Virus record (IMG/VR): IMGVR_UViG_2894657497_000001
Span: 1-64,000 of that record
Reading direction: 5' to 3' (one strand)
From: a virus
Lineage: Duplodnaviria; Caudoviricetes
Length of the DNA stretch: 64,000 bases
Part shown: one piece after another, positions 5,680 through 34,863 of the stretch
How positions within the stretch are numbered: position 1 is the stretch's first letter
How the letters are laid out: the number at the start of each line of letters is the position of its first letter
The notes under the pieces: generated by a model
The model's input: the letters and a program-made list of their open reading frames with translations, nothing else
What the model was told of the DNA's origin: nothing
Database searches by the model: none
Program-made: the position numbers and the translations under genes

Positions 5680-5901
5680 ATGGGGAATGAGGAACTGGCA
5701 AAGGCGCTCCACGAGGCAGGGAGAGCCGCAGTAGAGCAAGGGGCAACCGTGGCCGCTGAGAAGTTTGGGGAAAAGACCAGGAAGTTTCTGGAATGGGACG
5801 AGATCACCGAGCCCGCCAGAGAAGGCCGCAGGATCCAAGCCGCATGGCTGCAGGAGCATTTCACTATCACCCCCAAGGGAACAACTACGCCCACTATGTA
5901 G
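5680..5901 (+). CDS. Hypothetical protein
   Basis: 73-aa ORF with RBS, in operon. Confidence 0.5.
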   Translation: MGNEELAKALHEAGRAAVEQGATVAAEKFGEKTRKFLEWDEITEPAREGRRIQAAWLQEHFTITPKGTTTPTM

Positions 5902-5924
5902 CGCATGGCAAACAAGGAGAACCA

Positions 5925-9507: not shown

Positions 9508-9573
9508 GAAGCGACGGCGCACGGGATTGTTTCGACCGTGCGCCGCTATATAAACGAAAGGGAGAACACAGCA

Positions 9574-9993
9574 ATGGCAAAGAAGCACGCCGGAGGCAGA
9601 CCGACCAAGTTCAACCAGGACGTCGCCGACAAGATCATCGCCGCAATACGTAACGGGAACTACATGGACGTGGCTGCGGCATTCGGCGGTATCACAAAGG
9701 AAACTCTCTACGCCTGGATGCGAGAAGGAGCCAGCAAAACCAAGGGGCCGATGCACGAGTTTTCTGACTCTGTTAGAAAGGCGCTCGCGGATGCCGAGGC
9801 TACAGACCTCGCGCTCATCAGGAAAGCGGCACTCGACGGCGCATGGCAGGCTGCGGCATGGCGGTTGGAACGCCGGTTCAAGAGCAGATGGGGCAAGACC
9901 ATCGACGTAACCAACGATCTGAAAAATAAGACCAACGAGGAACTCCTTGCACTACTCGAAGACGCAGATACTGATGGAGTTGGAGCGGCGTAA
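9574..9993 (+). CDS. Terminase small subunit-like protein
   Basis: GGRPTKFNQDVADKII N-terminus, HTH, WQAAAWRLERRF; directly upstream of and overlapping terL. Confidence 0.75.
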   Translation: MAKKHAGGRPTKFNQDVADKIIAAIRNGNYMDVAAAFGGITKETLYAWMREGASKTKGPMHEFSDSVRKALADAEATDLALIRKAALDGAWQAAAWRLERRFKSRWGKTIDVTNDLKNKTNEELLALLEDADTDGVGAA

Positions 9994-11965
9994 GCAGGAG
10001 GAACGCGCCCGAGCAATGAAGCTCCTGCAGGAACGGGGAGTCACGATACCGCAGCACATCGTCGCATCGGGCCGGCCCTCAATCGCCAAGGACGTACCGA
10101 ACAGCCTGTACGAACTAGTCGAGAAGATCCGGCGAACGCTTAAGGTCGACAACGAGCCGTTCACATGGGAGGGGCACGAGTACCTGATCGAGCCGTACAA
10201 GGCCATGCAGGTGACCGGCGACCATGACCTGAACGGGCTCAAGATGGTGCTCATGTGCGGAGCCCAGGTGGGTAAGACCATCTTCGGATTTCTCGCGCTC
10301 GTATGGCTCGCGCTGCGATTTTGGGGGAAATACTTCGGGTACTTCCTCCCGGACCAGGCCATGGCCATGATATTTTCCGACGTCCGATTCAAGCCGACCG
10401 TGCGCAGCATCCCGGAGATCAAGCCGCTCTGGGGAGAGGATCCAGACGCCGACCCGGGAGAGAAACGAAAGACCGACCAGAAGCGCGTCAGGTCCATCGG
10501 CCCCTCGCAGATATTTTTCAGCTACATGCAGGGCGCCACCTCCACCGAGTCGATACCGATGCTCGGCGTGATCTTCGACGAGGTCCGCAAGATGATGGAA
10601 GGCGACATCGAGCGGGCCGAGGAACGTATCAGCCACTCGCCATACCCCATCAACTTCAAATACAGCACCGCGGGCTACCCAGACGCAAACATCGACAAAT
10701 ACTTCAAACAGTCCGACCAGCACCGGTTCCACAGCCGGTGCGGATGCAAGGACGGCGTGGTCCTGGCCGACTGCTTCCCGGATTGCATCGGCCAGCGCGG
10801 CAAGGAGTACGTCTACGTCTGCCCGACCTGCAACGAGATCATCACCAACCCCCGAGACGGCCTGTGGATCCCCCACAACCCGGAATCGAAAATCATCGGC
10901 TACCACATACCGCAGACCCTATCCTGCCGGCAGACGCCCGAGAAGATCATCCGCGCATACGAAGAGGCGCAAGACCTACAGGAGTTTTTCAACTCCAAGC
11001 TGGGGATCGCATACCTGGCGCCGGAGTCGCGCATCGTCAGCGACGACATCCTCCAGGCCACGGTCAACCCCGACCTGAAATGGCTTACCAAGGGCACCAA
11101 CTTCGCCATGGGCGTGGACCAGATGGGCGGATTTAACGTGGTCGTGATCCGCTATTGGGGGCCGAAGACCGACAGCGGCCTCCACAAGTCCCGGCTGGCG
11201 CACATCGAGTTTGTCTACGCAGACGATCCATGGGAACGCTGCGACGAGCTCATGAAGCAATACGATATCAGCGCATGCGTCGTCGACGGTCTGCCGAACA
11301 TCAACGAGGCCCGCAGGTTCGCGCAACGGCACCGCGGCAAGGTCTGGCTGGCGGACTACAGCTACGAGACGAAGGGCGACGGCGATATCTGCGAATGGGG
11401 CGACCGACCAAAGCAGAGCGCATCCGAGAAGCGGTCGAGCGACGAGATCAAGAACAAGTTCACGGTCCGCATCAGCCGATACCACGGCATCGAGTGGAAC
11501 CTCATGAAGTACGTCCACCGGTTCAAGGAGCAGCCGAACGAACTGGCGCTGGAAGCCGAGATACAGGACACGCTCGGCAAGAAGAAGATGGTTCGCATGT
11601 GCAAGGACGTGTTCTGGGTACACCTGCAGAAGGTGGCCCGGCGCAAGGAGTGGATCGACGAGTCGCAGGGCAAGTTCCGCATGATCTTCGAGAACATCGG
11701 CCTGGACCCCCACTGCCTGCACTCCGACCTTTACTGCGAACTGGCGCTCTCCCGGGTACCGGTCGATAGCCGCAACCGGCCATTCGGGGATTTGGCTCCC
11801 AGCGACAAGAAGCCCGGGGAGCATTCCTGGACGAAGCAGGGAGCATCCCAGGTCTATATCTGCGACCACTGCCGGATGGCGGTCAGAGCCAATCCCGGGC
11901 AGACAGCACAGGCGGCGGCAGATGCAGCAGGATACACAGCATGCCAGGCGGATTGGCAGGCATAG
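9974..11965 (+). CDS. terL: Terminase large subunit (GpA-like)
   Basis: Walker A-like GAQVGKT, Walker B VIFDEV, C-terminal nuclease GVDQMGG, Zn-ribbon CPTC. Confidence 0.88.
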   Translation: MELERRKQEERARAMKLLQERGVTIPQHIVASGRPSIAKDVPNSLYELVEKIRRTLKVDNEPFTWEGHEYLIEPYKAMQVTGDHDLNGLKMVLMCGAQVGKTIFGFLALVWLALRFWGKYFGYFLPDQAMAMIFSDVRFKPTVRSIPEIKPLWGEDPDADPGEKRKTDQKRVRSIGPSQIFFSYMQGATSTESIPMLGVIFDEVRKMMEGDIERAEERISHSPYPINFKYSTAGYPDANIDKYFKQSDQHRFHSRCGCKDGVVLADCFPDCIGQRGKEYVYVCPTCNEIITNPRDGLWIPHNPESKIIGYHIPQTLSCRQTPEKIIRAYEEAQDLQEFFNSKLGIAYLAPESRIVSDDILQATVNPDLKWLTKGTNFAMGVDQMGGFNVVVIRYWGPKTDSGLHKSRLAHIEFVYADDPWERCDELMKQYDISACVVDGLPNINEARRFAQRHRGKVWLADYSYETKGDGDICEWGDRPKQSASEKRSSDEIKNKFTVRISRYHGIEWNLMKYVHRFKEQPNELALEAEIQDTLGKKKMVRMCKDVFWVHLQKVARRKEWIDESQGKFRMIFENIGLDPHCLHSDLYCELALSRVPVDSRNRPFGDLAPSDKKPGEHSWTKQGASQVYICDHCRMAVRANPGQTAQAAADAAGYTACQADWQA

Positions 11966-12015
11966 TAACGAGAAAATCCGATAAGGGCAGCAATCAAACC
12001 ACCAGGGAGGTAACT

Positions 12016-15000
12016 ATGGAAGCATGCAGTAACCCGGAGTGCCCGCACCACGAAATTCCGCTGGGCAAAGACGGTTGTTTTGAAGTCAGAACAATCAAAG
12101 GTATTTTTCCCAACCAGACGATTGAAAACCGCCTCTTTAAGAGCCACCTATACCGCGACGACCATGGCAGGGATTTGTATTTTTGCGATATCTGCCACAG
12201 CGCCATATGGATGGTGCAGAACGGAGGGCACCGATAATGGAGAAATTCTGGATGATCGCCAACGTGGCTGCGGCAACCGAGCTACCGAACGGAGACGAGA
12301 AGATCGAGCCGCAGCACGCACCGAAGTACATTCACATGCACGAGGACGCGGCAGAGCAGGAGCTTATCCGCCTACAGCAAGCGCATCCTTCCGGCACGTT
12401 CGTCCTGCTCGAAGCCATGAGCATCGCCAAGCCGAGGATGGTAATGGTGATCGAAAAGCTGGAACTGCCGCCGCCGTTTTAGGCCGTAGCGTATGGCAAA
12501 CATTTTTATGGCAGCCAAGCAGAAAATGTGATACTTTCTGCGGGTAAATATAGCACTTTCCGCAAAGGCAAGGGGAGCAATGAGCAGCGACAAAAGACAG
12601 GGCCTGGAGGTTATCCAGGATGAAAACGAGATGTTCACCGTGGTGATCAGAATGGGCCGCCACAAGACCAGCATCAGGGGCAAACAGGAATATAACCGGA
12701 CGCTCCGCAGCATCATCAAGCAATGCGAGTGCCGCCTCGTTGACAAGAGGGTCAAGCATGCATGAGATCAACTGCCGCACCGACTGCCCGGACATAGGGC
12801 GCTGCTGCCGGGTGTTTATTCTCAACAGGGGCGCGAACTACAAGCGCAGCATCGAAGAAAAGACCCCATTCAGAGTAATTAAAGCGGAAGAACAAAGCTG
12901 CGTCGCTACCTGCAAGAACCTGCAGGCGGACGGCCTGTGCAGCGACTACGAGAATCGGCCCGCGACGTGTTGGGATTATACGCCCGGGGTGGAGTCGTTG
13001 TGCGCTCTTTTCGTCGGTCCACCAAAGCCAGGTGGCATGACCGAACTGAATCCCGAACTGCTGTACATGCGGGAGAGCAACACGGCGCATCATTCTGCGA
13101 GGGCGGCTTTAGAGGTAACAGAAGGTAAAGCCATGCCCGCTGCGTAGCGCATGGCATACAGCGGGCCACAAAAAAGGGAGAGAGGACATATGAGGTTACC
13201 TCAAACATTCATGGCATACCAACTCAGAACATGGCCCGTCGAAGAAGAACGAAAGTGCGGGAAACGGACATGGTGGCAGCCGGCGAGGCCGCTACCGTTT
13301 CGCACCGGGATCGTCGGATTTTTCCGGTTCCTGCCGTTACGCCTCAAGATCACCTGGAGAGTTTTCTCCGGGAGATACGACGCGGTGAGCTGGACGGAGA
13401 GCGGCGATGGCAGCCCGCGGCGCACCAGCAGCGGGAACGCCAGCGTGACCGACAACGAAGCGATCAAGCAGAGGGTAGGGGCGTTTATGTCAACTGCCGA
13501 CGATCCGAGAGTAATCATCAGCGACCTATACGCCTCGCTGGTGAGAACCGAGCACGCGCTGGAAGCCGCGATATCGAACACGGATGGAGCCACAAAAATA
13601 TGAAAACCATCAGAGCAATCATCGCATATCTGTTTTGCCCATACGACAGCACCGACGACAAGGACAAAGGCGAGAGAAGCGGGCTCACAACGGCGGTGGA
13701 TCATGCCACCGGTGTCCATTATCTCAAATCGTGGGCATTCGGCACTCCCATCGTCAGGCTCCGGGCCGATGGAATCCCATACACAGAAAAGGACGCCAAG
13801 CCGTTCTGGACGACCGAAAAGCCGACCGTCGAAGGCTACTACTGGACGAGGATAGACTGGCAAGACGTCAGCCCGGAGCCGGTGCGGGTCGCCATCAACC
13901 CGGACGAAGCCTGCAAGTTTGAGCGCGTGTGGATCTGGCGCACCGGGGAAGAAAATGCCACCGAGTTCGGCGATTTTGTGCGGCTGTTCGGCGGGGAATG
14001 GTACGGGCCGGTGGCGGGACCGCAGTAACCACGGAGGAAATCCGCCATGAAACACCTGCCAGAAATTTTGATCGCAGCCGCGCTGGCAATAGAGATTTAT
14101 TCGTTTTTTGCCTGCATGGCGCTGTTTAACACACCCTACCCATTCTTAAAATGGAGCCAAAAATGGGAACTCGAGCAACAATCCAATTCAAAGACCGCAA
14201 CGATGTGTACTACGTGTACCGAGGACACGACGGCCACCCGGAAAACGTCTTGGCCGACATCGAGGAAGTCCTGGAAAAAGTGAAAGGGAGATGGAGTGGC
14301 CCCGAGTGCGAACTGCTCGTCACGTTTTTCCTCGGCGTGACCTTTTTCAAAAGTGCCAACAGTCGGGTCCCAGACTATCAGATCACCAGCAGCTTCCACG
14401 GAGACGAGAGCTACCGCTACTACGTCGAATACGATTGGGGCACCCATAGCTGGAAAGTCACACACCAGTAACGGAGGACCACGATGCACCTTTACACGGA
14501 ATGCCCGGGATGCGGGAAACCAGTGACAGCCAACCTCACCCACAAGGAGGCATGGTGCGGCACCGACGAGATGCGACCGGCAGCCGTGGTGATGTGCCCC
14601 GAGTGCCGGACGGAGATAGAGATACTGGTCGTGACCAGGAGGAAAACGTGACAAGCACGACGCTCGTGGAACGAATCAAGGATATCACAAAACGGGGCAT
14701 CATCATCGACCGGCCAGGGTGCATAGAGGCGAAGGTGCCCCGCAAACAGATCCCAGCCGTTGAAAAATTATTGAGGGACAACGTACCAATTTGCGTCTGG
14801 TTTGAAGTCGGCCCGCTGCCATTCTGGGCATGCCGATTCCAGAAATTTCAAGCCAGACAGGACACGACCGGATTCCCGACTACAAGAACAAAGGAGCGAC
14901 AATGACCGAAGCAAACGAATTACTCCGCAGCGCCCACGAAATAGCGAAGCGGGAAGGCGTCGAAACCAATTGGGAAGCCTTCAAAAAAAACCTGCTGAGA

Positions 15001-15504
15001 GAGCTCAAACGCCAGGCCGGGGCGCTGGACGAGACGGATGAGCAAACCACTCTGCGTGCGACCTGCACGGCGAAGACATACAGGCTGCACCACTCGTGCA
15101 GAGACGTCGGAACTCTGCCGCCCCTCATGGATATGGTGGATAGGCTGCGGAACTTCCAAAACGGCATCCACGGGCAATTTTTTTTAGAGGCAGCGGACAG
15201 GATCGAAAGGCTGACATCGGACAATCAAGTCCTCCACCTCAAAAACGAAGCTCTGAAAGCGCCGCAGAGAGTCGAAGATGCACCGCTCTGGTGCGTCCAT
15301 ATCGAGGGGCCGGACGACCTGATCGCAATGCCGTCAATGGATGCCGCAGGCAGAGAGGCGGCAAAGCTCAATAAGTCGATTGGGCGGCAATGGGAGGAAG
15401 GCGACCCCGAGATTACCGCCATCGCAACCCTGTGGCCGTATTCGGCAGAGTCCCACGCAAAGGCTCTGGCCGAGGCCCAGGAAGAAGAGAACGCAACCCA
15501 CTAG
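12016..15504 (+). CDS. Cluster of small accessory hypothetical genes
   Basis: Consecutive plus-strand ORFs with GGAG RBSs (e.g. MEACSNPEC, MEKFWMI, MSSDKRQ, MRLPQTF, MKTIRAI, MGTRATI, MTEANEL). Confidence 0.5.
12758..13147 (+). CDS. YkgJ-like cysteine-cluster (Fe-S/Zn) protein
   Basis: CRTDCPDIGRCC...CKNLQADGLCSDYENRPATCWDY pattern. Confidence 0.7.
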   Translation: MHEINCRTDCPDIGRCCRVFILNRGANYKRSIEEKTPFRVIKAEEQSCVATCKNLQADGLCSDYENRPATCWDYTPGVESLCALFVGPPKPGGMTELNPELLYMRESNTAHHSARAALEVTEGKAMPAA

Positions 15505-15515
15505 AAAGGAACGAA

Positions 15516-15932
15516 ATGGACCTCCGAGACACCATCACCGAATGCGCAGAGATCACCAAGGCTCACGGCTTCGCCACCGACCAGCACGCGACACAGCTTG
15601 CGCTTATCGTGACCGAAGTAGCCGAGGCAATGGAATGCGTCAATCTCCTGAACCCTGCCGACAGCATCAGCGAGTCCGTAATGCTCGATTTCTGCAACGG
15701 CATATTGGCCAAGAGCTACGGCTTCGAGGCATTCCGCAAGAGCGCGAAGCACCACGAAGACAATTCCATCGTCGTCGATCAGGACCACCTCAACGAGGAA
15801 CTGGCCGACATCGTGATACGGGTATGCAGCTACGTCGGCGGGAACGGCCAGACCGACGCCTTCCTGCAGGCGCTCGCGGCCAAGATCGAGAAGAACCGCA
15901 ACAGGCCGTACCTGCACGGCAAGGGATTCTGA
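15516..15932 (+). CDS. MazG-like nucleotide pyrophosphohydrolase
   Basis: TEVAEAME...EELADIVIR acidic metal-binding motifs; KIEKNRNRPYLHGK C-terminus. Confidence 0.75.
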   Translation: MDLRDTITECAEITKAHGFATDQHATQLALIVTEVAEAMECVNLLNPADSISESVMLDFCNGILAKSYGFEAFRKSAKHHEDNSIVVDQDHLNEELADIVIRVCSYVGGNGQTDAFLQALAAKIEKNRNRPYLHGKGF

Positions 15933-15949
15933 CAACAGAAAGGAGAAGC

Positions 15950-16183
15950 ATGAGCCAGAAAGATGCAGTAGACCATCCCCAACACTACGGCGGGAAGGAC
16001 AACCCATACGAAGCCATAAAGGTGATCGAGGCTTGGGAACTGGGATTTTGCCTTGGCAACACCGTGAAGTACCTGTCTCGCGCAGGTAAGAAAAACCCTG
16101 ACAAGGCCATCGAAGATCTGGAAAAAGCTGCATGGTACCTGCAGCGTGAAATCGAAAGGAGAAAGTCTGATGCAACTTGTTAA
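15950..16183 (+). CDS. DUF3310 (SaV-like) protein
   Basis: DAVDHPQHY...GFCLGNTVKYLSRAGKK...EDLEKAAWYL. Confidence 0.8.
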   Translation: MSQKDAVDHPQHYGGKDNPYEAIKVIEAWELGFCLGNTVKYLSRAGKKNPDKAIEDLEKAAWYLQREIERRKSDATC

Positions 16184-16811
16184 GCCATCCGTGGAGATAC
16201 TCCACATCAACACCGATGCACTGCAACTGATCGAGACAGCCGGGCGCACCTGCTACAAGAGCGAGGACAAGATCACCGCAGACTCCGCCCCGAAGTTTTC
16301 CGAGATGATACTGAAGCGCGGGCACGAGTCGGTGCTCGAACACGCAACGGCATCGGCGCGGTTCATCTGCGACCGCGGTGTCACCCACGAGATCGTCCGG
16401 CACCGGATCGCCAGCTACAGTCAGGAGAGCACCAGGTACTGCGACTACGGCGGGGCCGTGGCCTTCGTGATTCCACCTTGGGTCGATATCGAGCCCGGCG
16501 AGTATACCGGCGAGGATTTGACCACCATAGACGATACCCTGGATCGCCTATGGTTTGTTGCGATGGCCGGAGCAGAGGCAGATTACCAGCACCTGAGAGA
16601 AATGGGATGGCGTCCGGAACAGGCCCGGTCCGTGCTGCCGAACAGCCTTAAAACGGAAATCGTGATGACCGCCAACCTCCGCGAGTGGCGCCACTTTTTC
16701 AAGCTGCGCTGCTCCCCGGCAGCCCACCCCCAGATGCGCGAGGTCGCCATACCGCTGCTCGCCGCGATGCACGCGCAAATCCCCGTGATATTCGATGATA
16801 TGACATGCTGA
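16170..16811 (+). CDS. thyX: FAD-dependent thymidylate synthase
   Basis: RGHESVLEH and the RHRIASYSQESTRY ThyX signature; ARSVLP; NLREWRHF. Confidence 0.93.
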   Translation: MQLVKPSVEILHINTDALQLIETAGRTCYKSEDKITADSAPKFSEMILKRGHESVLEHATASARFICDRGVTHEIVRHRIASYSQESTRYCDYGGAVAFVIPPWVDIEPGEYTGEDLTTIDDTLDRLWFVAMAGAEADYQHLREMGWRPEQARSVLPNSLKTEIVMTANLREWRHFFKLRCSPAAHPQMREVAIPLLAAMHAQIPVIFDDMTC

Positions 16812-16929
16812 TATTTACCCTCGGCGGATTCAACAACATGACGTGGAAGGTTCCGGCACCGGCCAACCGCCACGAGCACCGTGAGCACCGTGAGCACAAG
16901 AAGACCGGAAAGGTGCGGCGGTAAGTTAC

Positions 16930-17440
16930 AGCCAGCCAACGGAAAGAAGAAACCCATAGTATGAAAGCGAGCCACATGAATCGAGTCACCCAGAATTGAA
17001 CAGCGAGCCATATGTTTAAAGAAACCCACTCCCAGGTAGCGAGCCCCTAAGATGAAGCAACCCATAAAGTGACAGCGAGCCATAAGAAGCGAGAAACCCG
17101 GACCTCTGAAGCGAGCCAACGAAAGAAAGACCCCCATCTGCGGCGAGCGAGCCAATGCGTGAATGAAACCCGATGAGCACAAGCGAGCCAAATTTTTTTA
17201 GACACCCAAAAAGAACAAGCGAGCCAAAATGAAAAAGCAATCCGTTTTTTCCTAGCGAGCCACTGATATGTAGCAACCCGATGAAAGAAAGCGAGCCGGA
17301 AAAGGAGAGCAACCCGATTTGTTTTTAGCGAGCCATCTGTTTTGAGAAGCCCAAAATATCTAAGCGAGCCATTTCGCCAAAGAAGCCCAAAAAGAAATAG
17401 CGAGCCACGAGAACCGAGAAACCCTATGAATCGTAGCGAC
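16930..17440 (+). repeat. TIGR-like dual-repeat guide array 1 (14 units, 36-nt period)
   Basis: AGCGAGCCA-N9-AG(A/C)AACCC(A/G)-N9 repeated 14 times (one 37-nt unit); spacers all different; ends in AGCGAC. Confidence 0.9.
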
Positions 17441-17498
17441 ATCATTCTAGCGACAAATCTTTAACCGATAGCAGCATACCAAACCACAGGAGGAAACC

Positions 17499-18509
17499 AT
17501 GCCCGCAGGAAATTTTAAAACCATCGTCAGGGGCTGCTACGACATACAGCAACTCCGCATCCAGACCGGCAACCGCATCGTCGGGAACTTCAAGGCCAAG
17601 CTGGGCCAGGCTCCCGGCCAGAGCGAGGACACCCTGGACGACGAGTCGAAAGCGATGCTCGATCAGATCAGGGTCAACAATAAGCGGGTCGCCACCGGCG
17701 CCGTCGACGAACTGGAGCAGGAAGACAAGAAGGCCAAGAAGGTGGCCGGGTTCGTGACCAAGCTGCTCGAAAAGCACTACGCCATGCTTGCCCCGGACGG
17801 CCTCCCCCAGAAAAAGAAGTTTGCCGGCGATGCGGTGATCAGCGACTACACCGAGATCGCCTTGATATCGCAGTACAAGGAGCTTGAATCCCAGGAGGCC
17901 AAGCACTTCCGCAACCTCGGGAAGATACTTGAGGACTACCCGATCTACACCGAGTTTATGGAGAAGGTCAAGGGCATCGGGCCGGCCATGGCTGGCGTGA
18001 TCATCAGCGAGATCGATATCACCAAGGCCCGGCACCCGAGCAGCCTCTGGAAGTACGCCGGCCTGGACGTAGCAGACGACGGCAGAGGCCGCAGCCGCAG
18101 GAAAGAGCATCTACAGACTGTAGCGTATATTGATCGGGACGGACACGACGCCACCCGCAACGGCATCACGTTCAACCCCTTCCTGAAGACGAAGCTGACC
18201 GGAGTCCTGGCCAGCAGCTTCCTCCGGGCTGGCGACAACAAATACCGGCAGATATATGACGACTACAAGCACCGGCTGGAGAGCCACGAGAACTGGCAGG
18301 ACAAGAAGGTGCCCAACGAGAAGACCGGCAAGGACAAGATCGCCAGCGAGAAGGCGCACCGGCACAATGCTGCGATGCGGTACATGGTTAAGATTTTTTT
18401 GATCGACCTCTACACAGCATGGCGGGCGCTGGAAGGGCTGCCGGTCTCCGCCCCTTACCAGGATGCGAAGCTGGGGTACGTCCACGGCGGGGAGAAGCAG
18501 GCGGCGTAA
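17499..18509 (+). CDS. TasA-like Nop-domain (IS110-related) RNA-binding protein with no visible nuclease domain
   Basis: N-terminal coiled coil YDIQQLRIQTGNRI; VKGIGPAMAGVIISEID...SLWKYAGL, FNPFLKTKL, HNAAMRYMVKIFL resemble the IS110 C-terminal/Nop domain; no N-terminal DEDD RuvC or HNH motif; flanked by arrays. Confidence 0.85.
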   Translation: MPAGNFKTIVRGCYDIQQLRIQTGNRIVGNFKAKLGQAPGQSEDTLDDESKAMLDQIRVNNKRVATGAVDELEQEDKKAKKVAGFVTKLLEKHYAMLAPDGLPQKKKFAGDAVISDYTEIALISQYKELESQEAKHFRNLGKILEDYPIYTEFMEKVKGIGPAMAGVIISEIDITKARHPSSLWKYAGLDVADDGRGRSRRKEHLQTVAYIDRDGHDATRNGITFNPFLKTKLTGVLASSFLRAGDNKYRQIYDDYKHRLESHENWQDKKVPNEKTGKDKIASEKAHRHNAAMRYMVKIFLIDLYTAWRALEGLPVSAPYQDAKLGYVHGGEKQAA

Positions 18510-18512
18510 CGA

Positions 18513-19023
18513 TTACGGCCAATAGGATGGAGAAACCCATTCGACCAAAGCGAGCCGCAAACTTTTAGAAACCCATTGTGACAAAGCGAGCCGGAGGTAT
18601 CAAGAACCCCACAATGTACAAGCGTGCCATTGATTGAAAGAAACCCGAAATTGGAAAGCGAGCCGAATGACTTAATAAATACATGACAGAAAAGCGAGCC
18701 ATCCATTTTTAGAAACCCGTAAAAAGGAAGCGAGCCACGAATGACAAGAAACCCACATGAGCAAAGCGAGCCGTAAAAGAATAGCAACCCATTGCCTTTA
18801 AGCGTGCCTGTATGCGCGAGAAACCCATCTGAGTTGAGCGAGCCGCAATATAGTAGCAACCCAGTATAGAAAAGCGAGCCAACGTGCCAGAGGACACCAC
18901 ACTGCTCAAGCGAGCCGAAGGATCATAGCCACCCAACCACGGGAAAGCGAGCCACCACCACTGAGAACACCAAAGAAAGTAAGCGAGCCATCTTGTGAAA
19001 GAAGCCCAGTATTAGCAAGCGAC
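18513..19023 (+). repeat. TIGR-like dual-repeat guide array 2 (14 units, 36-nt period)
   Basis: Same AGCGAGCC(A/G)-N9-AGAAACCCA-N9 architecture; 14 units, one of 37 nt; ends in AGCGAC. Confidence 0.9.
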
Positions 19024-19043
19024 TACCAAAACAGGAGAAAACG

Positions 19044-19376
19044 ATGATCAGCAAGCAAGAATTCGTGAAAGCATTAAATGCCATCCTCGCACGCGAGGCG
19101 CTGCGGAACAAAATCGACAATGACATGGCCGGCATCGGCATCGGGATAATCGCCGACCCGCTGGAAGACGCCCTGGTGGACGTGCTCGATGCCACCCTTG
19201 ACCTCAATCATCCCCCGAAAGACGGAATCGTTAGCTGGTGGCTGTACGAGTGCTCGGCGGTGACCGCGCCGCGAGTAGGCAAATGCAGCATCGGGGATAA
19301 GGACTACACCATCACCACCCCCGAAGAACTCTACGACTACGCCATGGACTACCAGGGGGTAGCATGCGCCAAATAG
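19044..19376 (+). CDS. Hypothetical protein
   Basis: AGGAG RBS; VSWWLYE...ITTPEELYDY. Confidence 0.6.
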   Translation: MISKQEFVKALNAILAREALRNKIDNDMAGIGIGIIADPLEDALVDVLDATLDLNHPPKDGIVSWWLYECSAVTAPRVGKCSIGDKDYTITTPEELYDYAMDYQGVACAK

Positions 19377-19717
19377 TCTACGTCGCCGGCCCGTACACGG
19401 CCCCCACGAGGGAAGGCATCCAGGCCAACATCGACAAAGCCGAGGCCATTGGCAAAATGCTGCTGCTCCAAGGCGACACCCCGCTGATACCGCACCGGAT
19501 CACCGGGCATTGGGACGCAGACCCGAGATTCTCGGGCATGACGGCGAGAGACTGGATGAACGACGTATGCCTCCCGCTGCTGGACCGCTGCGACGCGATC
19601 ATCATGTGCCCCGGATGGATTAATAGCCCCGGATCCCTGCAGGAGCACCAGCATGCGGTCGTCACCGGGAAGCTGATCATGTATTTCGAGGACGATATGC
19701 CTGCGCTCACACCGTAG
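19364..19717 (+). CDS. DUF4406/DUF1937-like nucleoside-deoxyribosyltransferase-fold protein
   Basis: VYVAGPYT...LDRCDAIIMCPGWINSPGSLQE. Confidence 0.7.
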   Translation: MRQIVYVAGPYTAPTREGIQANIDKAEAIGKMLLLQGDTPLIPHRITGHWDADPRFSGMTARDWMNDVCLPLLDRCDAIIMCPGWINSPGSLQEHQHAVVTGKLIMYFEDDMPALTP

Positions 19718-19777
19718 CGCATACAAAACAAAGCAGGAGGCCGGCAACGGCCATAAACTAAAGGAGGTAGCAAGAAG

Positions 19778-20119
19778 ATGGTGAAAGAAGTGATGAAAGT
19801 AACAGGAGGGGTACTGCTGGGGATCGTGTGCGTCCTCGTACTGACATGGCTGTTCATGGGCAACGACTTTTTCATGTACAAGTTCTTCGCCCCGAAGACG
19901 GAAGCGGTCCGGCGCCAGACGCTCGAGCAATCAAAATCCTACAACCAGGGCATGGTGCAGGAGATCCAGAACATGCAGTTTGATTACATCAACGCGAGCC
20001 CGGAGCATAAGGCTGCCCTCGCCTCGATCATCCTCCACCGGGTCGCTGACTACGGCGAGGAAAAGCTGCCCGCAGACCTGCGGCAGTTTATCAACGGGCT
20101 GAAAGCAGGCGGCCTGTGA
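19778..20119 (+). CDS. Single-pass membrane protein
   Basis: N-terminal hydrophobic helix GGVLLGIVCVLVLTWLF. Confidence 0.6.
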   Translation: MVKEVMKVTGGVLLGIVCVLVLTWLFMGNDFFMYKFFAPKTEAVRRQTLEQSKSYNQGMVQEIQNMQFDYINASPEHKAALASIILHRVADYGEEKLPADLRQFINGLKAGGL

Positions 20120-20247
20120 GAAAGGGATTCACGCTCATAGAGCTGCTGATCGTCCTGGCAATATGCGCCATCCTGGCTGCGGTAATCATCCCGCAGCTTC
20201 CAAACGGCATACCCGTCGGAGACGGGAAAGTGCTCAAACTCAGATAG
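20116..20247 (+). CDS. 43-aa type IV prepilin-like mini-protein (not in the ORF track)
   Basis: MRKG|FTLIELLIVLAICAILAAVIIPQLPNGIPVGDGKVLKLR: class III signal peptide with G|F cleavage site, E5 and P22; GTGA overlap with the upstream stop. Confidence 0.8.
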   Translation: MRKGFTLIELLIVLAICAILAAVIIPQLPNGIPVGDGKVLKLR

Positions 20248-20258
20248 GAGGTAGGACC

Positions 20259-20762
20259 GTGTACAAGATTTTTATGGTGATGATGATGGTGGTTTTCATG
20301 GCGGGCTGCAAGGTGGAGAGCACGCAGAGCAGCGACAACACGCAGCAACAGCAGCAGGAGCGCATCCTGCAGGAAGGCTCCGCGCAGACCGGCATGCCGG
20401 CAATCAAGAATTTCCGCGAGAAGAAGCTGCTCAAGGACATCTACGAACTGCGCGACCAGGACGGCCTGGTGACATACACCTACATCGTGGCCGAGATGAC
20501 CGGCAAGCTGGTGTACCTGGGTGAGTCCATCGGGTACGGCATCCCCGCAGCGACGCAGTACACAAACCCGCAGAAGATCGCTGAGAAGAATACCTACCAG
20601 AGCGGCAGCTACGCCATCTTGCCCCAGGCCGACCCCAACGGGCTATTTTCTCCGGCATCTGCCGAGGGCACATGGGTCATGCTGAAGGATCCCCACGGCG
20701 GCAAGGTGCGGCCCGTGTACGTAGAACAACGGATCGTCGTCGCACCGTTCAAAATGCAGTAG
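20259..20762 (+). CDS. Putative lipoprotein
   Basis: GTG start after AGGAGG; hydrophobic leader ending in lipobox MAGC. Confidence 0.7.
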   Translation: MYKIFMVMMMVVFMAGCKVESTQSSDNTQQQQQERILQEGSAQTGMPAIKNFREKKLLKDIYELRDQDGLVTYTYIVAEMTGKLVYLGESIGYGIPAATQYTNPQKIAEKNTYQSGSYAILPQADPNGLFSPASAEGTWVMLKDPHGGKVRPVYVEQRIVVAPFKMQ

Positions 20763-20810
20763 GCAGACCGAGTGGCAGAGTGGCAGATCTGCCACAAAAA
20801 AATGATTGAC

Positions 20811-20952
20811 AGCGGGGCGGCGTGGGAGCGGACACGCAGCGGGGCTCACATCAAAAGGCAACGGCAATAAGACCTGCGATATAGCAGTCAAGCATGGGAA
20901 CGTCGTCTGGCAGTGAGGCCAGACATAGCCGGAGTAGCGACCGGCCCCCGCT
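20811..20952 (+). ncRNA. tRNA-like structured RNA candidate
   Basis: 7-bp acceptor-like stem AGCGGGG/CCCCGCT, 2-nt link, 5-bp D-like hairpin GCGTG/CACGC, 5-bp T-like hairpin GCCGG/CCGGC stacked on the acceptor stem; extra internal hairpins. Confidence 0.55.
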
Positions 20953-21288
20953 AAATACGGGTATCCGTAAAAAGTCGTTGATGATCAAAAAACTACACAA
21001 ATGAATTACACACTTTAATGCTTCATTGGGAACCAGAATGAAATACGGGACAGGAAAATCAGCGGATAATATCTGCGTTATTTGTGGTAGGGGCGGTGCT
21101 CGATCAGTTGGGGCAGGAGGCCGAGCACACAAGAAATGTATCCCAATCGTAAATGGGCAAACATGCCAACATTGTGACGCCGGATGTACATACCCAGACT
21201 GCCCCGCAGAAGGGTCGATAACCCAAAAGGGAGTAATCACTACCAACGACTTTTTACGGATACCCCTAAATACGAACAGGAGACGACA

Positions 21289-21657
21289 ATGTCGCAAGCA
21301 GAGTTCAGAAAAGAACTTGTGAAAATTATGCCGGGATACGACTGGACCATTCACAAATCGGGCAACCCTGAAATTTATCTCTGCGCCACAGGCGTCCAAT
21401 CAAGCGGATTCAATCGACTGTCAACATTGCAGGTTGAACGGAGAGAACGAGATGGGAGGGTCCGATACGAGGTCAAAAGCGCTGGTTACGGTAAAAGAGC
21501 CCCATGGCTGGCAACAGCAGTGGACGACACACTGGCCAGAGCGTTGCGCGTCCTGCAAAACCATTATGAAAATATGGCAGCAACATACAGAAGCCATGCG
21601 AGCTACCTGCAGCACGCGAGAACCCCCAAGGAACCGCCATGCGCTGGGACAATATGA
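21289..21657 (+). CDS. Hypothetical protein
   Basis: AGGAG RBS; MSQAEFRKELVKIMPGY. Confidence 0.6.
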   Translation: MSQAEFRKELVKIMPGYDWTIHKSGNPEIYLCATGVQSSGFNRLSTLQVERRERDGRVRYEVKSAGYGKRAPWLATAVDDTLARALRVLQNHYENMAATYRSHASYLQHARTPKEPPCAGTI

Positions 21658-21854
21658 CCACATTGCCGCTGCTGAAAACAGTAATGCGGCTCAAAAGGGC
21701 GACAAAAACAGAACTATCGCTGATATCGGGCGTGTCGGAGCGGACCATCGGGACTGCCAGGGCCGGAAAGCCTATCGACGCTACCCTGGCCGGATACATC
21801 AGCCAGGCGCTCGTGCAGAACGAATTCAGCAGGGACAAAAGGGGGGGATGGTGA
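21654..21854 (+). CDS. Small HTH protein
   Basis: TKTELSLISGVSERTIGTARAG XRE-like pattern. Confidence 0.5.
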   Translation: MTTLPLLKTVMRLKRATKTELSLISGVSERTIGTARAGKPIDATLAGYISQALVQNEFSRDKRGGW

Positions 21855-22345
21855 CGCACAAGGAGTTGGTCAAGATCGCAGAAAAGTGGCTGCTCGGAAC
21901 ACGCAAGTGCTCGTTCGCATTTACCGAACTAGTGACGATGGGCACCGACGAGATCCCCGACGCATTAGGATTCCGTGACGGGCACTCAATACTGATCGAA
22001 TGCAAGACCAGCCGGTCGGACTTTCTGGCCGACAAAAAGAAGATATTTCGTCGCAACCCACGCTTGGGCGTCGGGACATTCCGCCTGTTTCTCTGCCCCG
22101 AGGGCGTCATCAGGCGAGAAGACCTCCCGGCCCGGTGGGGCCTAATATGGGTAAACGAGAAGGGTAAGCCGCGGCAGGTAGTGGGGCCAAAAGGGAACGC
22201 ATGGGGATACAGCGGGCTTGAATTCCAGCACGAAAGCAACCTGCGGGCAGAATACGCCATGATGGCAAGCGCTCTGCGCCGGCTGCACCTTCGGGGAGTC
22301 CTGCCGATGATTTACGAGCCGCTGAAAACCAGCACCAGGGAGTAA
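21848..22345 (+). CDS. PD-(D/E)xK (MmcB-like) nuclease-fold protein
   Basis: EIPDALGF...ILIECKTSRSDFLAD. Confidence 0.7.
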   Translation: MVTHKELVKIAEKWLLGTRKCSFAFTELVTMGTDEIPDALGFRDGHSILIECKTSRSDFLADKKKIFRRNPRLGVGTFRLFLCPEGVIRREDLPARWGLIWVNEKGKPRQVVGPKGNAWGYSGLEFQHESNLRAEYAMMASALRRLHLRGVLPMIYEPLKTSTRE

Positions 22346-22799
22346 AGCCATGACAACGATATTGATTGTGGACGATGGATACGGCAGAGCGCAGATGATC
22401 GCCCGCAGCATGATCGCCCGCAGCATGATCGCCAATGCCGGTATTGAGCCAGCAGAGGTCATAATACGCCCTTCATATGACCCACCCGAGCAGTTCGCGG
22501 ATCCCAAAGAATGCTGGAAGCCTGCCCCGACCGGACTCCCACGGAAGCAGCGCAAGAACTGGAAGATGAAGCGGAGGGAGCGGAAGAGATCCCGCAGGAA
22601 GTAGCCGCAGGCATCATTCTGGCCGGGGGCCTTTGGTAGAACACACCAATACAAAGGAGGATCGGAGATGGATGAAAAAATGAAAACAGCGGAAGATAAA
22701 GCTCCATCAAGCTTGTTGTTACTTGTTTGCGCAACTGGATGGATGATGACCAGCGCGTCTGCGTGCTGGTGATGGCAGATAAAACTTCGGAGGAACCCC

Positions 22800-23971
22800 A
22801 TGAGTAATAACGAAGAGTTGAAGGAAAGAGCAAGGGTAGATATCAAAATTCTTGATAGTATTGGGCGAGAAAATATGGCTAGCCATATCCGGGATCTCCT
22901 CGCGGCCCTCAATGCGGCAGAATTGGACGCTGAATGCAACCGGATACAGGCGGTAGATCGCGGTAATAGTTTTTCCGCCATGCAAACCGAGAACGCTACT
23001 CTCAAAACAGGATGCCAGTCATTCCAAGATTCCTTTTACCGGGAGAGCAAAAAGACGAAGCAACTGCAGCAAAATAACGCCACTCTGGAAGCCGAGAATG
23101 CCGCCCTCAAAACCCGGCTCGCTAGCCGTACCTACTACCACGACAATGCAGCGGTGGAGGCCGAGGTAAAACGGCTGGAAGGGGAACTACTAAAATCAAA
23201 CGAGCAAGCCAATGAAATGATTAAGCATTTGAGAGAGATGTTAGCCAAAACGCAGGGAGCAAATGAATGTAATTACAAGGGCAAACTTGCCGCAGAATCC
23301 GAACTATTCCGCTACCGGTCAGGGGTGGAGGTAGAAGGCCACGGCTGCAATTATGGGCACATAGGCGTATTACCCGCAGATTGGGCCAAATTGGTGCAAT
23401 TCGACGGACAGCACGTTCGCATCCTGGTGATGGCGGACAGCAAACCGCAGGAGGTACAGGGATGAGCGTAGACGAATGCCCAATTGATTGCGATAGCTGC
23501 GTCAAGTGGCCATGCCCAGAATTGAACCATGCACCAGCCGATCCAACCGAGATCGACCGCCTCCGCGCCCTGGAGATAGAGTTAAAGCGATTGCTTGTGG
23601 TAGAGGAAGCATACCGCGAATCAATAATCGATACAGCTAGTCTCCGCACCAAGGTGGCAGAACTGACCAAAGAACGGGACCACTGGAAAGCCAACCACAA
23701 TGACCTCAAGAATAGGCTGGCCTTTTTACGCCAACGCCCTGATTTGCCGGTAGACAGAATCCCCGTCTACGAGCAACTGGTCAAGGAACGGGACGCTCTG
23801 GTCCGGGAAGTGAATGTGCAGCGGGCCAGAGCCGAGTTGTTCGAGACAGATAAACACCACAAGGCGCAGCAGGAGGCGGCGCGGGACTGCTTCATAATCA
23901 TGTTCGACGCAGCATCGTATGCCGAAGGCTTCGAGGAAATAAAGGCCAAATACCACCTGGAGGACGTCTGA
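22800..23971 (+). CDS. Two coiled-coil hypothetical proteins (22800-23465, ~23462-23971)
   Basis: Heptad-rich ORFs with ATGA overlap. Confidence 0.55.
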
Positions 23972-24612
23972 GCGCCCGAGCAATTTTTTGCCAAAAACTC
24001 AAAGAGTGTTGATATTATTAATATTATTTCCAGCATTACCCGCTGGGCACCGTTGCAAATAGCGCCATAAAGGCGTAAGTAAAAAAAGGAAGCAAAAAGG
24101 ACAACATTTTGTCGTCAACGGCCATGAATACTGGCGGTTGCTTAAAAAAGACCTATGGATTACCCAGGAGGAAAAGTTGAAGAAGCTGATCTGGAAAATC
24201 AGATACATGAGAGACATGGCGCGTCGCACTGGTAAGAGCAGGCGATTCTGCTGGTGGGCTGCAGGCCGTGAGGTAAAATACAACCCCGATTGGCGCGACG
24301 ACTCTCCGCACGATGCGGTAACGAACGAAATGAGCTTCTGGAACTAGAAGACACCAAAAAGGACAAAGGAATATGCCACGAGTAGAAGCGACCGCCACAG
24401 GGAGGCAGAAACAGACGTTCATGGTCTGGTACGGCAAGCCATACAACCGGAGAAGCTTCCAGACAGCGCTTGCAGAGGTCAAGGAGGCGCTGGCCGAAGC
24501 CATACAGCACGGGCTCAAGGTAGATGGGCCAATCCTGCACTACCCCAACAACAACAAGAAGACGAGGCCGGAAGAGATCCCATACGAGCCGGAAGCCTCC
24601 GCATAATCAAAC

Positions 24613-24630
24613 TGTTTGATATGCGCTACA
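24613..24630 (+). promoter_or_regulatory. Representative copy of a dispersed 18-bp motif (TGTTTGATATGCGCTACA; about 18 copies in the window)
   Basis: Copies at 2505, 4444, 5897, 7789, 12485, 13143, 19713, 39980, 44766, 48629, 51759, 52212 (one orientation) and 24613, 33216, 34804, 41234, 56767, 63202 (other orientation), all at gene junctions or intergenic. Confidence 0.8.
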
Positions 24631-24664
24631 TAATAGGGCTATTATAGAGCAAAACTCAATACCT

Positions 24665-24739
24665 CGGTTATTTAGACTCGCCACCACGATCACCTAAACC
24701 CGGAAATAGCACGAAACAACGTGCCGTCTCCGGGTTTTT
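24665..24739 (+). promoter_or_regulatory. Structured leader copy 1 (upstream of portal)
   Basis: Near-identical to 41608-41684; AACCCGGA...TCCGGGTT stem enclosing GCACG/CGTGC hairpin, followed by a T-tract. Confidence 0.7.
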
Positions 24740-24757
24740 GTATTTAAGAGGGATACA

Positions 24758-34734: not shown

Positions 34735-34863
34735 TGCAATATCCTCCAAGGGTAGAATGACTACGGATGAGACAAGATGCCCGGCCAGAATGATGCGGCA
34801 AAGTGTTTGATATGCGCTACACCATGCCATATACTTAGCGCAACTACCTTTCCGGGGGCAAGA

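Follow-up and report, generated by a model that had tools for sequence, protein, structure and literature searches.

TIGR-Tas systems have been in print since 2025 (Faure 2025, PMC12045711), where TasA proteins are reported to bind 36-nt RNAs. In the same paper a rho-independent terminator after the array is described as typical though not required, and a host RNase is proposed for the processing of the TaTasR guides. Repression by TasA, as well as the occurrence of arrays on both sides of tas, was described in 2026 together with a TIGRFinder catalogue of 20,096 tas loci (Xu 2026, bioRxiv 10.64898/2026.09.09.750476); the TIGRFinder set comprises 65,635 dual-repeat tigRNAs. According to that preprint, MbTasA binds its target DNA and represses genes in a guide-dependent and reversible manner, and catalytically dead TasR likewise serves as an RNA-guided transcriptional repressor.

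The locus considered here lies in a window of 64,000 nucleotides, i.e. the whole stretch of DNA that was analysed, and the record that carries it is a near-complete phage of 89.8 kb (89,819 bases). The phage genes include an integrase (1-1206, PHROGs), a terminase, a portal, a capsid and a tail sheath protein as well as an anti-repressor, and the carrier is a temperate tailed phage. A sequence-only reading had called the system TIGR-Tas-like; its attribution to TIGR-Tas holds, but the qualifier can be dropped, as the locus is an ordinary member of the published family. In our view it is very probably a nuclease-free, dual-repeat TIGR-TasA system with 28 two-part guides, carried by a temperate tailed phage and acting by the mechanism set out below.

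Reading and parsing of the sequence confirmed two TIGR arrays of 14 units each, the first at 16930..17440 (+; unit starts 16930 to 17399) and the second at 18513..19023 (+; unit starts 18513 to 18982). Between them lies tasA (17499..18509, +), the gene for a 336-aa solo-Nop Tas protein identified from the ORF list and by profile and fold comparisons, so that array 1, tasA and array 2 are all on the same strand. In both arrays each unit consists, in this order, of an edge repeat, a 9-nt spacer A, a loop repeat and a 9-nt spacer B, and all 28 spacer pairs are distinct, as had been read before. The period, previously described as strict, is 36 nt in 26 of the 28 units; a 10-nt spacer B lengthens the other two, unit 11 in array 1 and unit 12 in array 2, to 37 nt, and the period is therefore not fully strict. 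Each array terminates in AGCGAC, an edge repeat truncated at its 3' end (17435-17440 and 19018-19023, respectively).

The edge repeat reads AGCGAGCC[A/G] in 23 of the 28 units. It is degenerate in the first unit of each array (AGCCAGCCA in array 1 and TTACGGCCA in array 2), and two edge repeats read AGCGTGCC. For the loop repeat, the formula AG[A/C]AACCC[A/G] given in the sequence-only reading applies to 14 of the 28 units, the rest being more variable; the wider form AG....CC(A/G) describes them better, with AG at the start in 26/28 and CC at positions 7-8 in 27/28. A few units look defective: in unit 2.5 the loop (ATAAATACA) has no CC for box C, and in unit 1.7 it has TG at its start.

Both repeats thus have a box D at the start and a box C at the end (edge AG-CGAG-CC(A/G), loop AG-xxxx-CC(A/G)), and this shared AG start and CC(A/G) end is what a symmetric dimer requires. 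In addition, the 4-nt core CGAG of the edge repeat has complementary ends, the pairs at this locus being C3:G6 and G2:C7. In relatives these pairs covary, with GC, AT or GT at 2:7 and CG or TA at 3:6, in a sample of 26 repeat-consensus types of which five are parse failures.

In the window, 27 copies of AGCGAGCC were counted where 3.1 would be expected (maximum over 100 shuffles 8), with 24 of the 27 inside the arrays, and the whole-unit pattern GCCR-N9-AG-N4-CCR-N9-AGCG was found 22 times against 0.00 expected, 21 of these matches being inside the arrays. Tandem Repeats Finder recovered array fragments only, Rfam gave no family at E <= 1, and no tRNA gene was found in the window. CRISPR-Cas arrays have one repeat of 25-36 nt which alternates with spacers of similar size, and they are accompanied by cas genes. 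CRISPR-Cas was rejected for this locus, which has two alternating 9-nt repeats with 9-nt spacers, no PADLOC match of the TasA protein and no Cas-family neighbour in PHROGs.

The tasA gene is preceded by an AGGAGG ribosome-binding site read from the sequence (17488..17493, +), 5 nt upstream of the start codon. As array 1 is located directly upstream of tasA, an upstream exon is impossible. The protein matches the NCBIfam model NF052498 (TIGR_Tas_endo) with 140.5 bits (E 7e-41; cut-off 100), and its sequence matches in the PDB are TasR (9mty, E 1.6e-14) and TasH (E 1.5e-9). Foldseek with the TasA model returned TasH or TasR chains without exception among the ten best. With VIA-align, the model was superposed on TasH with Z 18.4 (216 residues aligned, model 1-327 onto chain 66-298) and on TasR with Z 17.6 (191 aligned, rmsd 2.3, model 3-317 onto chain 111-302), as compared with Z 12.5 for IS621 and Z 6.9 for Nop5. 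The comparison with Nop5, IS110 and Tas structures which had been proposed as a check thus places Tas closest, and no catalytic recombinase domain was seen.

Since residues 1-3 of the TasA model align at residue 66 of TasH and residue 111 of TasR, the HNH and RuvC domains of these proteins have no counterpart here. Residues 1-150 of the model are all helical; the Nop/RNA-binding domain follows a helical coiled-coil region and begins at about residue 116. Within the coiled-coil region there is a clade-specific insertion, at about residues 62-111, for which model confidence is low; the full length of 336 aa includes two insertions relative to most close relatives, which have about 284-300 aa. 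Pfam found only Transposase_20 (E 1.3e-4, residues 154-203) and HHH in TasA, with neither a nuclease domain nor a DEDD transposase domain at E <= 1. The earlier description as a Nop-domain protein devoid of DEDD RuvC or HNH is therefore borne out by the profile score, the TasH and TasR alignments and the Pfam result.

The Transposase_20 match, the label 'transposase' of PHROG 4285 and the fold match to IS621 could suggest an IS110-family transposase whose repeats are bridge-RNA or terminal sequences. The IS110 model NF033542, however, reaches only 24.1 bits against a cut-off of 140, the IS621 alignment covers only residues 126-314 of IS621 and leaves the DEDD/RuvC-like domain without a counterpart, and 28 tandem units of 36 nt are no bridge RNA. 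The probability of this explanation is negligible, and we regard it as refuted by the missing catalytic domain. As to the prediction that the gene would be annotated as IS110, PHROG 4285 and a RefSeq homologue from phiRSL1 do carry the name 'transposase', but NCBIfam release 20 names the family 'TIGR-Tas system RNA-guided endonuclease'.

Assignment to the TIGR-Tas family is hence supported by the NCBIfam score, TasH and TasR as top matches, the absence of nuclease domains, the layout of box C and box D, the truncated terminal repeats and the finding that a region of 36-nt period lies next to tas in 78 of 97 related loci. At E <= 1e-5, TasA has 2454 homologues.

Near its C-terminus TasA has the loop PYQDAKLGYVH, the codons of which, according to the alignment, include the presumed pre-tigRNA processing dyad Y320/H329 (18456..18485, +). 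Y320 (codon 18456-18458) is aligned to the catalytic Y289 of SpTasH. H329 (codon 18483-18485) is invariant in 26/26 aligned members and lies 2 residues past the position aligned to H296 of SpTasH, in a stretch where pLDDT is below 50 from residue 324 on. Given this offset, self-processing is something that we infer.

The action of the locus, i.e. its transcription, processing and targeting, can be inferred from the published relatives as follows. Array 1, tasA and array 2 are probably transcribed jointly with the neighbouring genes, because no promoter or terminator was detected between the arrays and tasA: the promoter and terminator scan of the + strand inside the locus gave nothing beyond chance, and no terminator-like site was found on this strand in 15500-21000. 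The ribosome-binding site of the next gene lies directly behind each array, and after array 2 it is followed by a gene start at 19044. A TasA dimer would bind the precursor RNA through the boxes of its edge and loop repeats, CCA/CCG for box C and AG for box D, and TasA itself probably cuts within each edge repeat by means of its conserved C-terminal Tyr/His pair, which would release 28 guide RNAs of 36 nt or, in two cases, 37 nt. The predicted target of each guide-loaded dimer is a stretch of DNA of about 18 bp made up of two adjoining half-sites, which the spacers are expected to read on opposite strands, spacer A on one and spacer B on the other, with their 3' ends meeting mid-site. Read along one strand, the target site would accordingly be spacer A plus the reverse complement of spacer B. 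Without a nuclease domain, the complex is predicted to bind and bend the DNA and leave it uncut, thereby blocking transcription or replication of the target. The idea of a programmable DNA binder which silences without cutting, put forward from the sequence, would correspond to the function that Xu 2026 (bioRxiv 10.64898/2026.09.09.750476) showed for another TasA.

Alternatively, TasA could work as an RNA-guided adaptor and recruit another factor to the target in trans, be it a nuclease of phage or host, the integrase or a ParB-like or methyltransferase protein, leading to cleavage, recombination or modification. Faure 2025 (PMC12045711) raises RNA-guided help for integrases and mentions occasional operons of tasA and parB-like genes; this phage encodes the integrase as well as a fusion of a ParB-like protein and a DNA methyltransferase (5793-7418, PHROGs), and its TasA has the coiled-coil insertion, about 40 residues that are present in 9/26 aligned members. 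However, neither of these two genes adjoins the locus, the neighbours of which encode thymidylate synthase (ThyX) and nucleoside 2-deoxyribosyltransferase. The neighbour genes also differ in a sibling phage (L018), there is no conserved partner, and MbTasA represses on its own (Xu 2026, bioRxiv 10.64898/2026.09.09.750476). We therefore consider an adaptor function improbable and retain direct, nuclease-free blocking of the target by TasA.

The sibling phage has a TasA 76% identical to the one described here and the same repeats, with arrays on both sides but without any shared spacer. A protein identical to TasA is encoded on a contig of 186,325 bp. For the first 39 bases of the record, metagenome contigs yielded no match. 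Megablast of positions 16000-20000 against the phage collection gave no match, and two whole 27-nt guide cores had 0 matches, one searched against viral contigs and another against metagenome contigs. A first scan of genome contigs found no relatives; a second yielded 17 contigs in metagenome-assembled genomes (MAGs) of many phyla, pointing to no host.

The degenerate repeats, namely those of the first units, the loop of unit 2.5 and the two AGCGTGCC edge repeats, along with a target search that gave none, might be taken as signs of an inactive relic in which arrays and gene are decaying. Against this, the ORF is intact and has a strong ribosome-binding site, none of the 66 invariant columns in the alignment of 26 members is lost in TasA, and most edge repeats are canonical. 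Moreover, the sibling phage has kept repeats and gene although all of its spacers are different, which points to turnover under selection and not to decay, so that a relic is extremely unlikely and a working TIGR-TasA locus is the reading that we follow.

The spacers are AT-rich, with 35% GC as compared with 55% for the phage. Across related loci (566 guides), spacers A and B end in complementary bases (a9 and b9) in 35% of cases, whereas 24% are expected (Z 7.6); at the present locus, units 1.2 and 1.3 are examples of such guides. Natural dinucleotide bias was rejected as the cause of this signal, as the ratio for identical neighbours is 1.58 at the junction but 0.96-1.21 for steps inside spacers. 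The relatives gave no signal of hairpin-type pairing between the two spacers, all anti-diagonal Z values being between -0.9 and 1.7, and words resembling ribosome-binding sites were not enriched in the spacers (5/56 against 4.7 expected). For spacers A and B, Faure 2025 (PMC12045711) states that there was no obvious covariation.

It might be speculated, with little confidence, that some of the guides in this TasA clade recognise sites of 17 bp with a single central base pair shared between the spacers: the last base of spacer A would pair with one partner of this base pair and the last base of spacer B with the other. Selection might, moreover, favour natural guides against AT-rich DNA that melts easily, for instance at promoters; with its 28 guides, the phage would then carry a silencer of many targets in AT-rich regulatory or foreign DNA. 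If a 17-bp mode exists, natural targets would have to be searched for differently. The search for natural targets also gains two small new leads, the family-wide a9-b9 complementarity and the AT-rich composition of the spacers.

The composite-spacer search that had been suggested on the basis of the sequence revealed no target in the phage or in the 97 related loci, while the four guides searched in IMG/VR stayed at control level. In detail, all 28 guides were scanned against the 89,819 bases of the phage on both strands with gaps of 0-2. In the correct geometry, 'B + rc(A)', there were 0 sites with 0-1 mismatches, 1 with 2, 7 with 3 and 53 with 4 mismatches, as compared with 0.4, 3.2 and 50.0 for 2, 3 and 4 mismatches with re-paired (shuffled) guides; the numbers for three other geometries were much the same. 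When the two spacers of a composite overlapped by 1 bp (17-mers), the phage had 0 sites with up to 2 mismatches and 8 with 3 mismatches, against 5.4 for re-paired guides. When 886 distinct guides were compared with the 97 related loci and the phage, 0 sites with <=1 mismatch were found in either opposite-strand geometry.

These scans bear on the possibility that the guides serve self-regulation, with TasA as a programmable repressor acting on lysis-lysogeny or late genes of this phage. Such a role would suit a temperate phage with an integrase and an anti-repressor, and 'regulation of the viral lifecycle' is among the possibilities named by Xu 2026 (bioRxiv 10.64898/2026.09.09.750476). Nevertheless, the lack of sites with 0-1 mismatch, the numbers at 2-3 mismatches beside those of the re-paired guides, the result for the 1-bp-overlap composites and the difference in GC content between spacers and phage speak against it, making self-regulation very unlikely.

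In IMG/VR, 4 of the 28 guides were scanned (2.11, 1.5, 2.9 and 1.6). Guide 2.11 had 0 matches and guide 1.5 had 1 match. Guide 2.9 matched 4 stretches, which represent one sequence within an ORF of a 61%-GC contig that has no similarity to this phage, and guide 1.6 matched 14 stretches from 6 independent sequences. As guides 1.6 and 2.9 matched 6 and 2 stretches, respectively, in wrong-orientation controls, i.e. the same level, the matches were treated as chance and rejected as targets. The targets are not in the phage itself; the most likely ones are AT-rich sites, either of the host or of competing mobile elements.

By itself the locus matters little, given that thousands of loci have been catalogued. 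Its practical value is that of a near-complete record of a temperate phage, where most catalogued loci are on short contigs, with 28 well-formed guides and a sibling whose repeats are the same but whose spacers all differ. Should the host be identified, the two phages would be a reasonable place to seek natural targets, which is the main question for TIGR-Tas systems. For a 5-Mb genome scanned with all 28 composites, we estimate that chance alone would give about 0.008 perfect 18-mers.

A few points count against the main reading when the locus is compared with known systems. Box D is AG here but UG in the solved TaTasR complex (Faure 2025, PMC12045711), there is no terminator after the arrays, some units look defective as noted above, and MbTasA is from a Minisyncoccota bacterium, a lineage other than the TasA clade found here (Xu 2026, bioRxiv 10.64898/2026.09.09.750476). 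More distant are the IS110/IS621 bridge-RNA recombinases and the archaeal Nop5 box C/D RNPs, which share the Nop-type RNA-binding fold, while the present locus has neither a DEDD/RuvC domain nor a single bridge RNA. TaTasR (PDB 9mty) is closer, with 31% identity over the superposed coiled-coil and Nop regions, but it has an N-terminal RuvC nuclease, residues 1-110 of which lack a counterpart here. The best fold match, SpTasH from Salicola phage CGphi29 (PDB 9w03, 9w04, 21kl; PMC13421893), is likewise phage-encoded and dual-repeat. Its C-terminal loop ...PxY...KLG..H... carries the catalytic Y289 and H296, whereas in the loop aligned with it here the His is shifted by 2 residues; SpTasH also differs in its N-terminal HNH nuclease, with which it cuts DNA and whose residues 1-65 are missing here, and identity is about 22-24%. 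Dual-repeat Tas proteins are described as keeping the C-terminal Y/H processing loop in the preprint of Xu 2026 (bioRxiv 10.64898/2026.09.09.750476), which also reports nuclease-free Tas proteins, arrays that may flank tas on both sides and spacers of 8-10 nt, these last three agreeing with our locus. A close likeness is to FpTIGR-TasA from Flavonifractor plautii (Faure 2025, PMC12045711), which has a solo-Nop Tas, alternating edge and loop repeats, 9-nt spacers, a 36-nt unit, truncated terminal edge repeats and an array on the same strand beside tas, and is phage-carried as well. Relative to the dual-repeat TIGR-TasA of that paper, FpTasA being compared by its description only, the present locus differs in its box D (AG and not UG), in having an array of 14 units on either side of the gene and in lacking a terminator. 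It is real and well formed, but an ordinary new instance of TIGR-TasA, a system described only recently.

Two TIGR arrays of 14 units each were found on the plus strand, array 1 at 16930-17440 (unit starts 16930 to 17399) and array 2 at 18513-19023 (unit starts 18513 to 18982), each ending in a truncated edge repeat, AGCGAC (17435-17440 and 19018-19023, respectively). Direct reading of the sequence and script parsing agreed on these units, and confirmed the two 14-unit arrays with 28 distinct spacer pairs reported by the sequence-only reading. Every unit consists of an edge repeat, spacer A, a loop repeat and then spacer B, each 9 nt long. The strict 36-nt period claimed earlier holds for 26 of the 28 units; array 1 unit 11 and array 2 unit 12 measure 37 nt because their spacer B has 10 nt. 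The edge repeat is AGCGAGCC(A/G) in 23/28 units, and the opening edge repeat of both arrays is degenerate (AGCCAGCCA and TTACGGCCA). The loop repeat varies more than had been stated: only half of the units (14/28) carry AG(A/C)AACCC(A/G), with an AG start kept in 26/28 and CC at positions 7-8 in 27/28.

The array repeats greatly exceed chance expectation. The window holds 27 copies of AGCGAGCC where 3.1 were expected, 24 of them inside the arrays, and the whole-unit pattern gives 22 matches against 0.00 expected (21 inside the arrays). Tandem Repeats Finder returned array fragments only. A relaxed unit pattern run over the full 89,819-base record recovered just the two arrays and one orphan at window positions 35344-35378 (+), which fits GCCG-N9-AGCACCCCG-N9-AGCG and has poor flanking 'edge repeats'; with an estimated 0.01 or so such matches expected by chance, the orphan is probably a coincidence. 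It lies within a 1735-aa ORF (34777-39984, +) that matches a phosphoheptose-isomerase-like family and large, functionally uncharacterized phage proteins, with a minor-head-protein domain match at its C-terminus. Shortly upstream of array 1, the 9-nt unit GAGCACCGT is also repeated in tandem (2.7 copies, 16874-16897, +). The period is divisible by three, and each array's antisense strand therefore remains open, giving ORFs of 132 and 134 codons (17047-17445 and 18455-18859, both -) with repetitive 'GSL' peptides, which gene callers may label as hypothetical proteins.

The 336-aa gene noted between the arrays is present at 17499-18509 (+), with an AGGAGG site 5 nt upstream of its ATG. In Pfam the protein matched only a piece of Transposase_20 (residues 154-203, E 1.3e-4) and, weakly, HHH; in PHROGs it falls into phrog_4285, labeled 'transposase' (E 2.9e-43). 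An identity as IS110 transposase was nevertheless rejected, as the NCBIfam IS110 model gave just 24.1 bits against a cut-off of 140. The curated NCBIfam model NF052498, 'TIGR-Tas system RNA-guided endonuclease', scored 140.5 bits (cut-off 100), and the PDB sequence matches were the RuvC-bearing TaTasR (9mty, E 1.6e-14) and the HNH-bearing SpTasH (E 1.5e-9). A PADLOC search with the protein found no match.

An AlphaFold2 model was built from a 26-sequence alignment (mean pLDDT 76.5, pTM 0.71), and the top ten Foldseek chains were all TasH or TasR. The comparison with Nop5, IS110 and Tas structures proposed from the sequence places Tas closest: VIA-align gave Z 18.4 for TasH 9vzx_A (216 residues, model 1-327 on chain 66-298) and Z 17.6 for TasR 9mty_A (191 residues, rmsd 2.3, 31% identity, model 3-317 on chain 111-302), followed by IS621 with Z 12.5 (175 residues, model 1-312 on chain 126-314) and Nop5 (3pla) with Z 6.9 (183 residues, model 1-315 on chain 135-357). 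From these ranges, the modeled protein starts where the coiled-coil/Nop module of its relatives starts. It has no counterpart of TasH's HNH domain (1-65), TasR's RuvC domain (1-110) or IS621's DEDD domain (1-125), in line with the earlier claim that DEDD RuvC and HNH motifs are lacking; model residues 1-150 are helices only. With array 1 immediately upstream of the gene, no missing N-terminal exon is possible. The protein is therefore TasA in the nomenclature of Faure 2025 (PMC12045711). The original observation is thus confirmed, and its interpretation as a TIGR-TasA system is supported.

PHROGs annotation of 65 ORFs identified an integrase (1-1206, -), small and large terminase subunits (9538-11965), a portal (24758-26542), a head protease (41701-42594), a major head protein (43330-44766), a tail sheath (48938-50671) and an anti-repressor (55843-56574, -). 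On this gene content the record, 89,819 bases of which the window is the first 64 kb, is a temperate contractile-tailed phage. Its start coincides exactly with the integrase stop codon, as if a provirus had been cut back to a gene boundary; an identical TasA protein is recorded on a 186,325-base contig, which could hold host flanks. Terminase and portal are separated by 12.8 kb of small accessory genes (11965-24758), among which lies the TIGR-tasA module, with ThyX (16146-16811) on one side and a nucleoside 2-deoxyribosyltransferase (19364-19717) on the other. Positions 5793-7418 (+), not adjoining tasA, encode a 541-aa protein in which a ParB-like N-terminal domain is fused to a DNA methyltransferase; tasA-parB operons are described as occasional (Faure 2025, PMC12045711).

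The protein belongs to a large family, with 2454 members at E <= 1e-5. By alignment, 97 related loci were fetched, 17 from genomes (all MAG contigs, from many phyla) and 80 of the 148 matching viral contigs. A region with a 36-nt period adjoins tas in 78 of the 97, including one unrelated repeat (L064) and several regions clipped by contig ends. The closest relative, a sibling phage locus on a 90.5-kb viral contig (L018), has a TasA 76% and a portal 80% identical, the same edge and loop repeats, and 11 units upstream and 3 downstream. It has no spacers in common with the window, which points to complete guide turnover between the siblings with repeats and protein kept; the accessory genes around the module (ThyX and nucleoside 2-deoxyribosyltransferase block) are arranged differently. 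Where related arrays have guides partly in common, guide order is the same (L046/L047/L050, L030/L045, L058/L072, L073/L076), and in several such pairs the common guides lie nearer the 3' end, with differing guides nearer the 5' end; in a few units only one half-guide is common. Among named phages, Ralstonia phage phiRSL1 comes closest (35.6% identity; L125, record 13180-14217); its homologue is labeled 'transposase' in RefSeq and is followed by 1.4 kb without annotation, where a quick period scan gave a weak 35-36-nt periodicity with arrays not clearly resolved. Small ORFs beside this homologue resemble the antisense-array artefact mentioned above.

Published cleavage leaves 8-nt 3' overhangs, the cut falling 5' of the base opposite the fifth spacer nucleotide past box C (Faure 2025, PMC12045711); from this, the 3' ends of spacers A and B are deduced to meet at the site centre. 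One DNA strand of the target would then read spacer A and next spacer B in reverse complement, an order derived here. We took 566 distinct, cleanly parsed guides of 63 related loci and compared them with partner shuffling within each locus. The last bases of spacers A and B are complementary in 35.0% against 24.4% after shuffling (Z 7.6), an enrichment covering all four complementary pair kinds, with the remaining 80 of 81 position pairs at |Z| <= 2.9. The opposite geometry gave no signal (ratio 0.97). Nearest-neighbour bias was rejected as the cause, since identical neighbours show a ratio of 1.58 across the junction, compared with 0.96-1.21 for the 16 within-spacer steps. This signal supports a meeting of the spacer 3' ends at the target centre, and suggests either that some guides may recognize 17-bp sites, with one central base pair shared, or that the last bases pair mutually. 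In the window, 11 of 28 guides have complementary last bases, which is not significant alone. Faure 2025 (PMC12045711) describes no obvious covariation of spacers A and B, and in the tigRNA literature searched, including preprint passages, we found no statement of last-base covariation or AT-rich spacers.

The window spacers are rich in AT, and in A above all, with 35% GC (A 38%, T 27%, G 21%, C 15%) against 55% for the phage. Of the 75 loci parsed (the window plus 74 relatives, not dereplicated), 59 have spacers lower in GC than their flanks, with means of 0.42 and 0.48 and the largest gap in the window. ATG occurs in 16 of the 56 window spacers (7-8 expected) and ATGA in 10 (2.7 expected), in RNA-sense orientation only, as the reverse complements are not enriched. 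This excess, noticed by eye before being tested, is not clearly repeated in the relatives (ATGA 75 against 63.0, z 1.5, in a parse contaminated by repeat fragments) and is given little weight. Some 7-8-mers recur across half-guides, e.g. ATGAATCG in spacer A of array 1 unit 2 and spacer B of unit 14.

Searches for targets found no sites above re-paired controls for the 28 guides in the phage's own genome and none in the related loci. The composite search suggested earlier (spacer A plus reverse-complement spacer B), run for 4 of the 28 guides in IMG/VR, yielded no convincing phage target: the guides matched 0, 1, 1 and 6 independent sequences, a level similar to that of two wrong-orientation controls (6 and 2 stretches), and these matches were treated as chance. 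Among them is the single 18/18 match of guide 2.9 (array 2, unit 9), located in an ORF of a 61%-GC phage without relation to this one. Natural TIGR-Tas targets are described as mostly undetermined (Faure 2025; Xu 2026, bioRxiv 10.64898/2026.09.09.750476).

MbTasA, from a Minisyncoccota bacterium, binds target DNA tightly and represses a reporter and a chromosomal gene in a guide-dependent, reversible manner (Xu 2026). As the window TasA likewise has no nuclease, its action is most likely the same, DNA binding without cutting. In dual-repeat Tas proteins a C-terminal Tyr/His loop is retained, which cleaves the precursor without metal (Xu et al. 2026), the catalytic residues of SpTasH being Y289 and H296 (PMC13421893). 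In the HMMER alignment TasA Y320 is placed opposite Y289, and since SpTasH KLG-H corresponds to TasA KLGYVH, H329 stands two residues past the aligned position. H329 is invariant and Y320 at least 90% conserved among the 26 aligned members, and the loop has low confidence in the model. From this alignment and conservation, TasA likely processes its own precursor.

In published TIGR arrays, 9-nt spacers separate alternating edge and loop repeats, each 8-12 nt long; the arrays occur upstream and/or downstream of tas, and their outermost edge repeats are truncated, the first at its 5' and the last at its 3' end. Both repeat kinds open with box D (UG in TaTasR) and close with box C (CCA), as they are bound by a symmetric dimer, and the edge repeat has an extra base pair (Faure 2025, PMC12045711). 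TIGRFinder separates edge from loop repeats by the complementary ends of the 4-nt core. Here, the edge repeat parses as AG-CGAG-CC(A/G), with complementary core ends, and the loop repeat as AG-AAAC-CCA with an A-rich core. The 73 loci that parsed into 4 or more units (the window and 72 relatives) gave 26 distinct repeat-consensus pairs (5 of them evident parse failures), in which edge positions 2:7 are GC, AT or GT and 3:6 are CG or TA; judged from these consensi, the two pairs covary and correspond to those seen in the TasR structure. Folding of the array transcripts was not above that of shuffled sequence (z +1.0 and +0.3), and an Rfam search of the locus found no match. Unlike typical TIGR arrays, neither array is followed by a terminator, the ribosome-binding site of the next gene coming directly after. 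The window arrays otherwise show every listed defining feature, with AG as box D, and the TIGR-TasA locus is an ordinary additional member of the published family.
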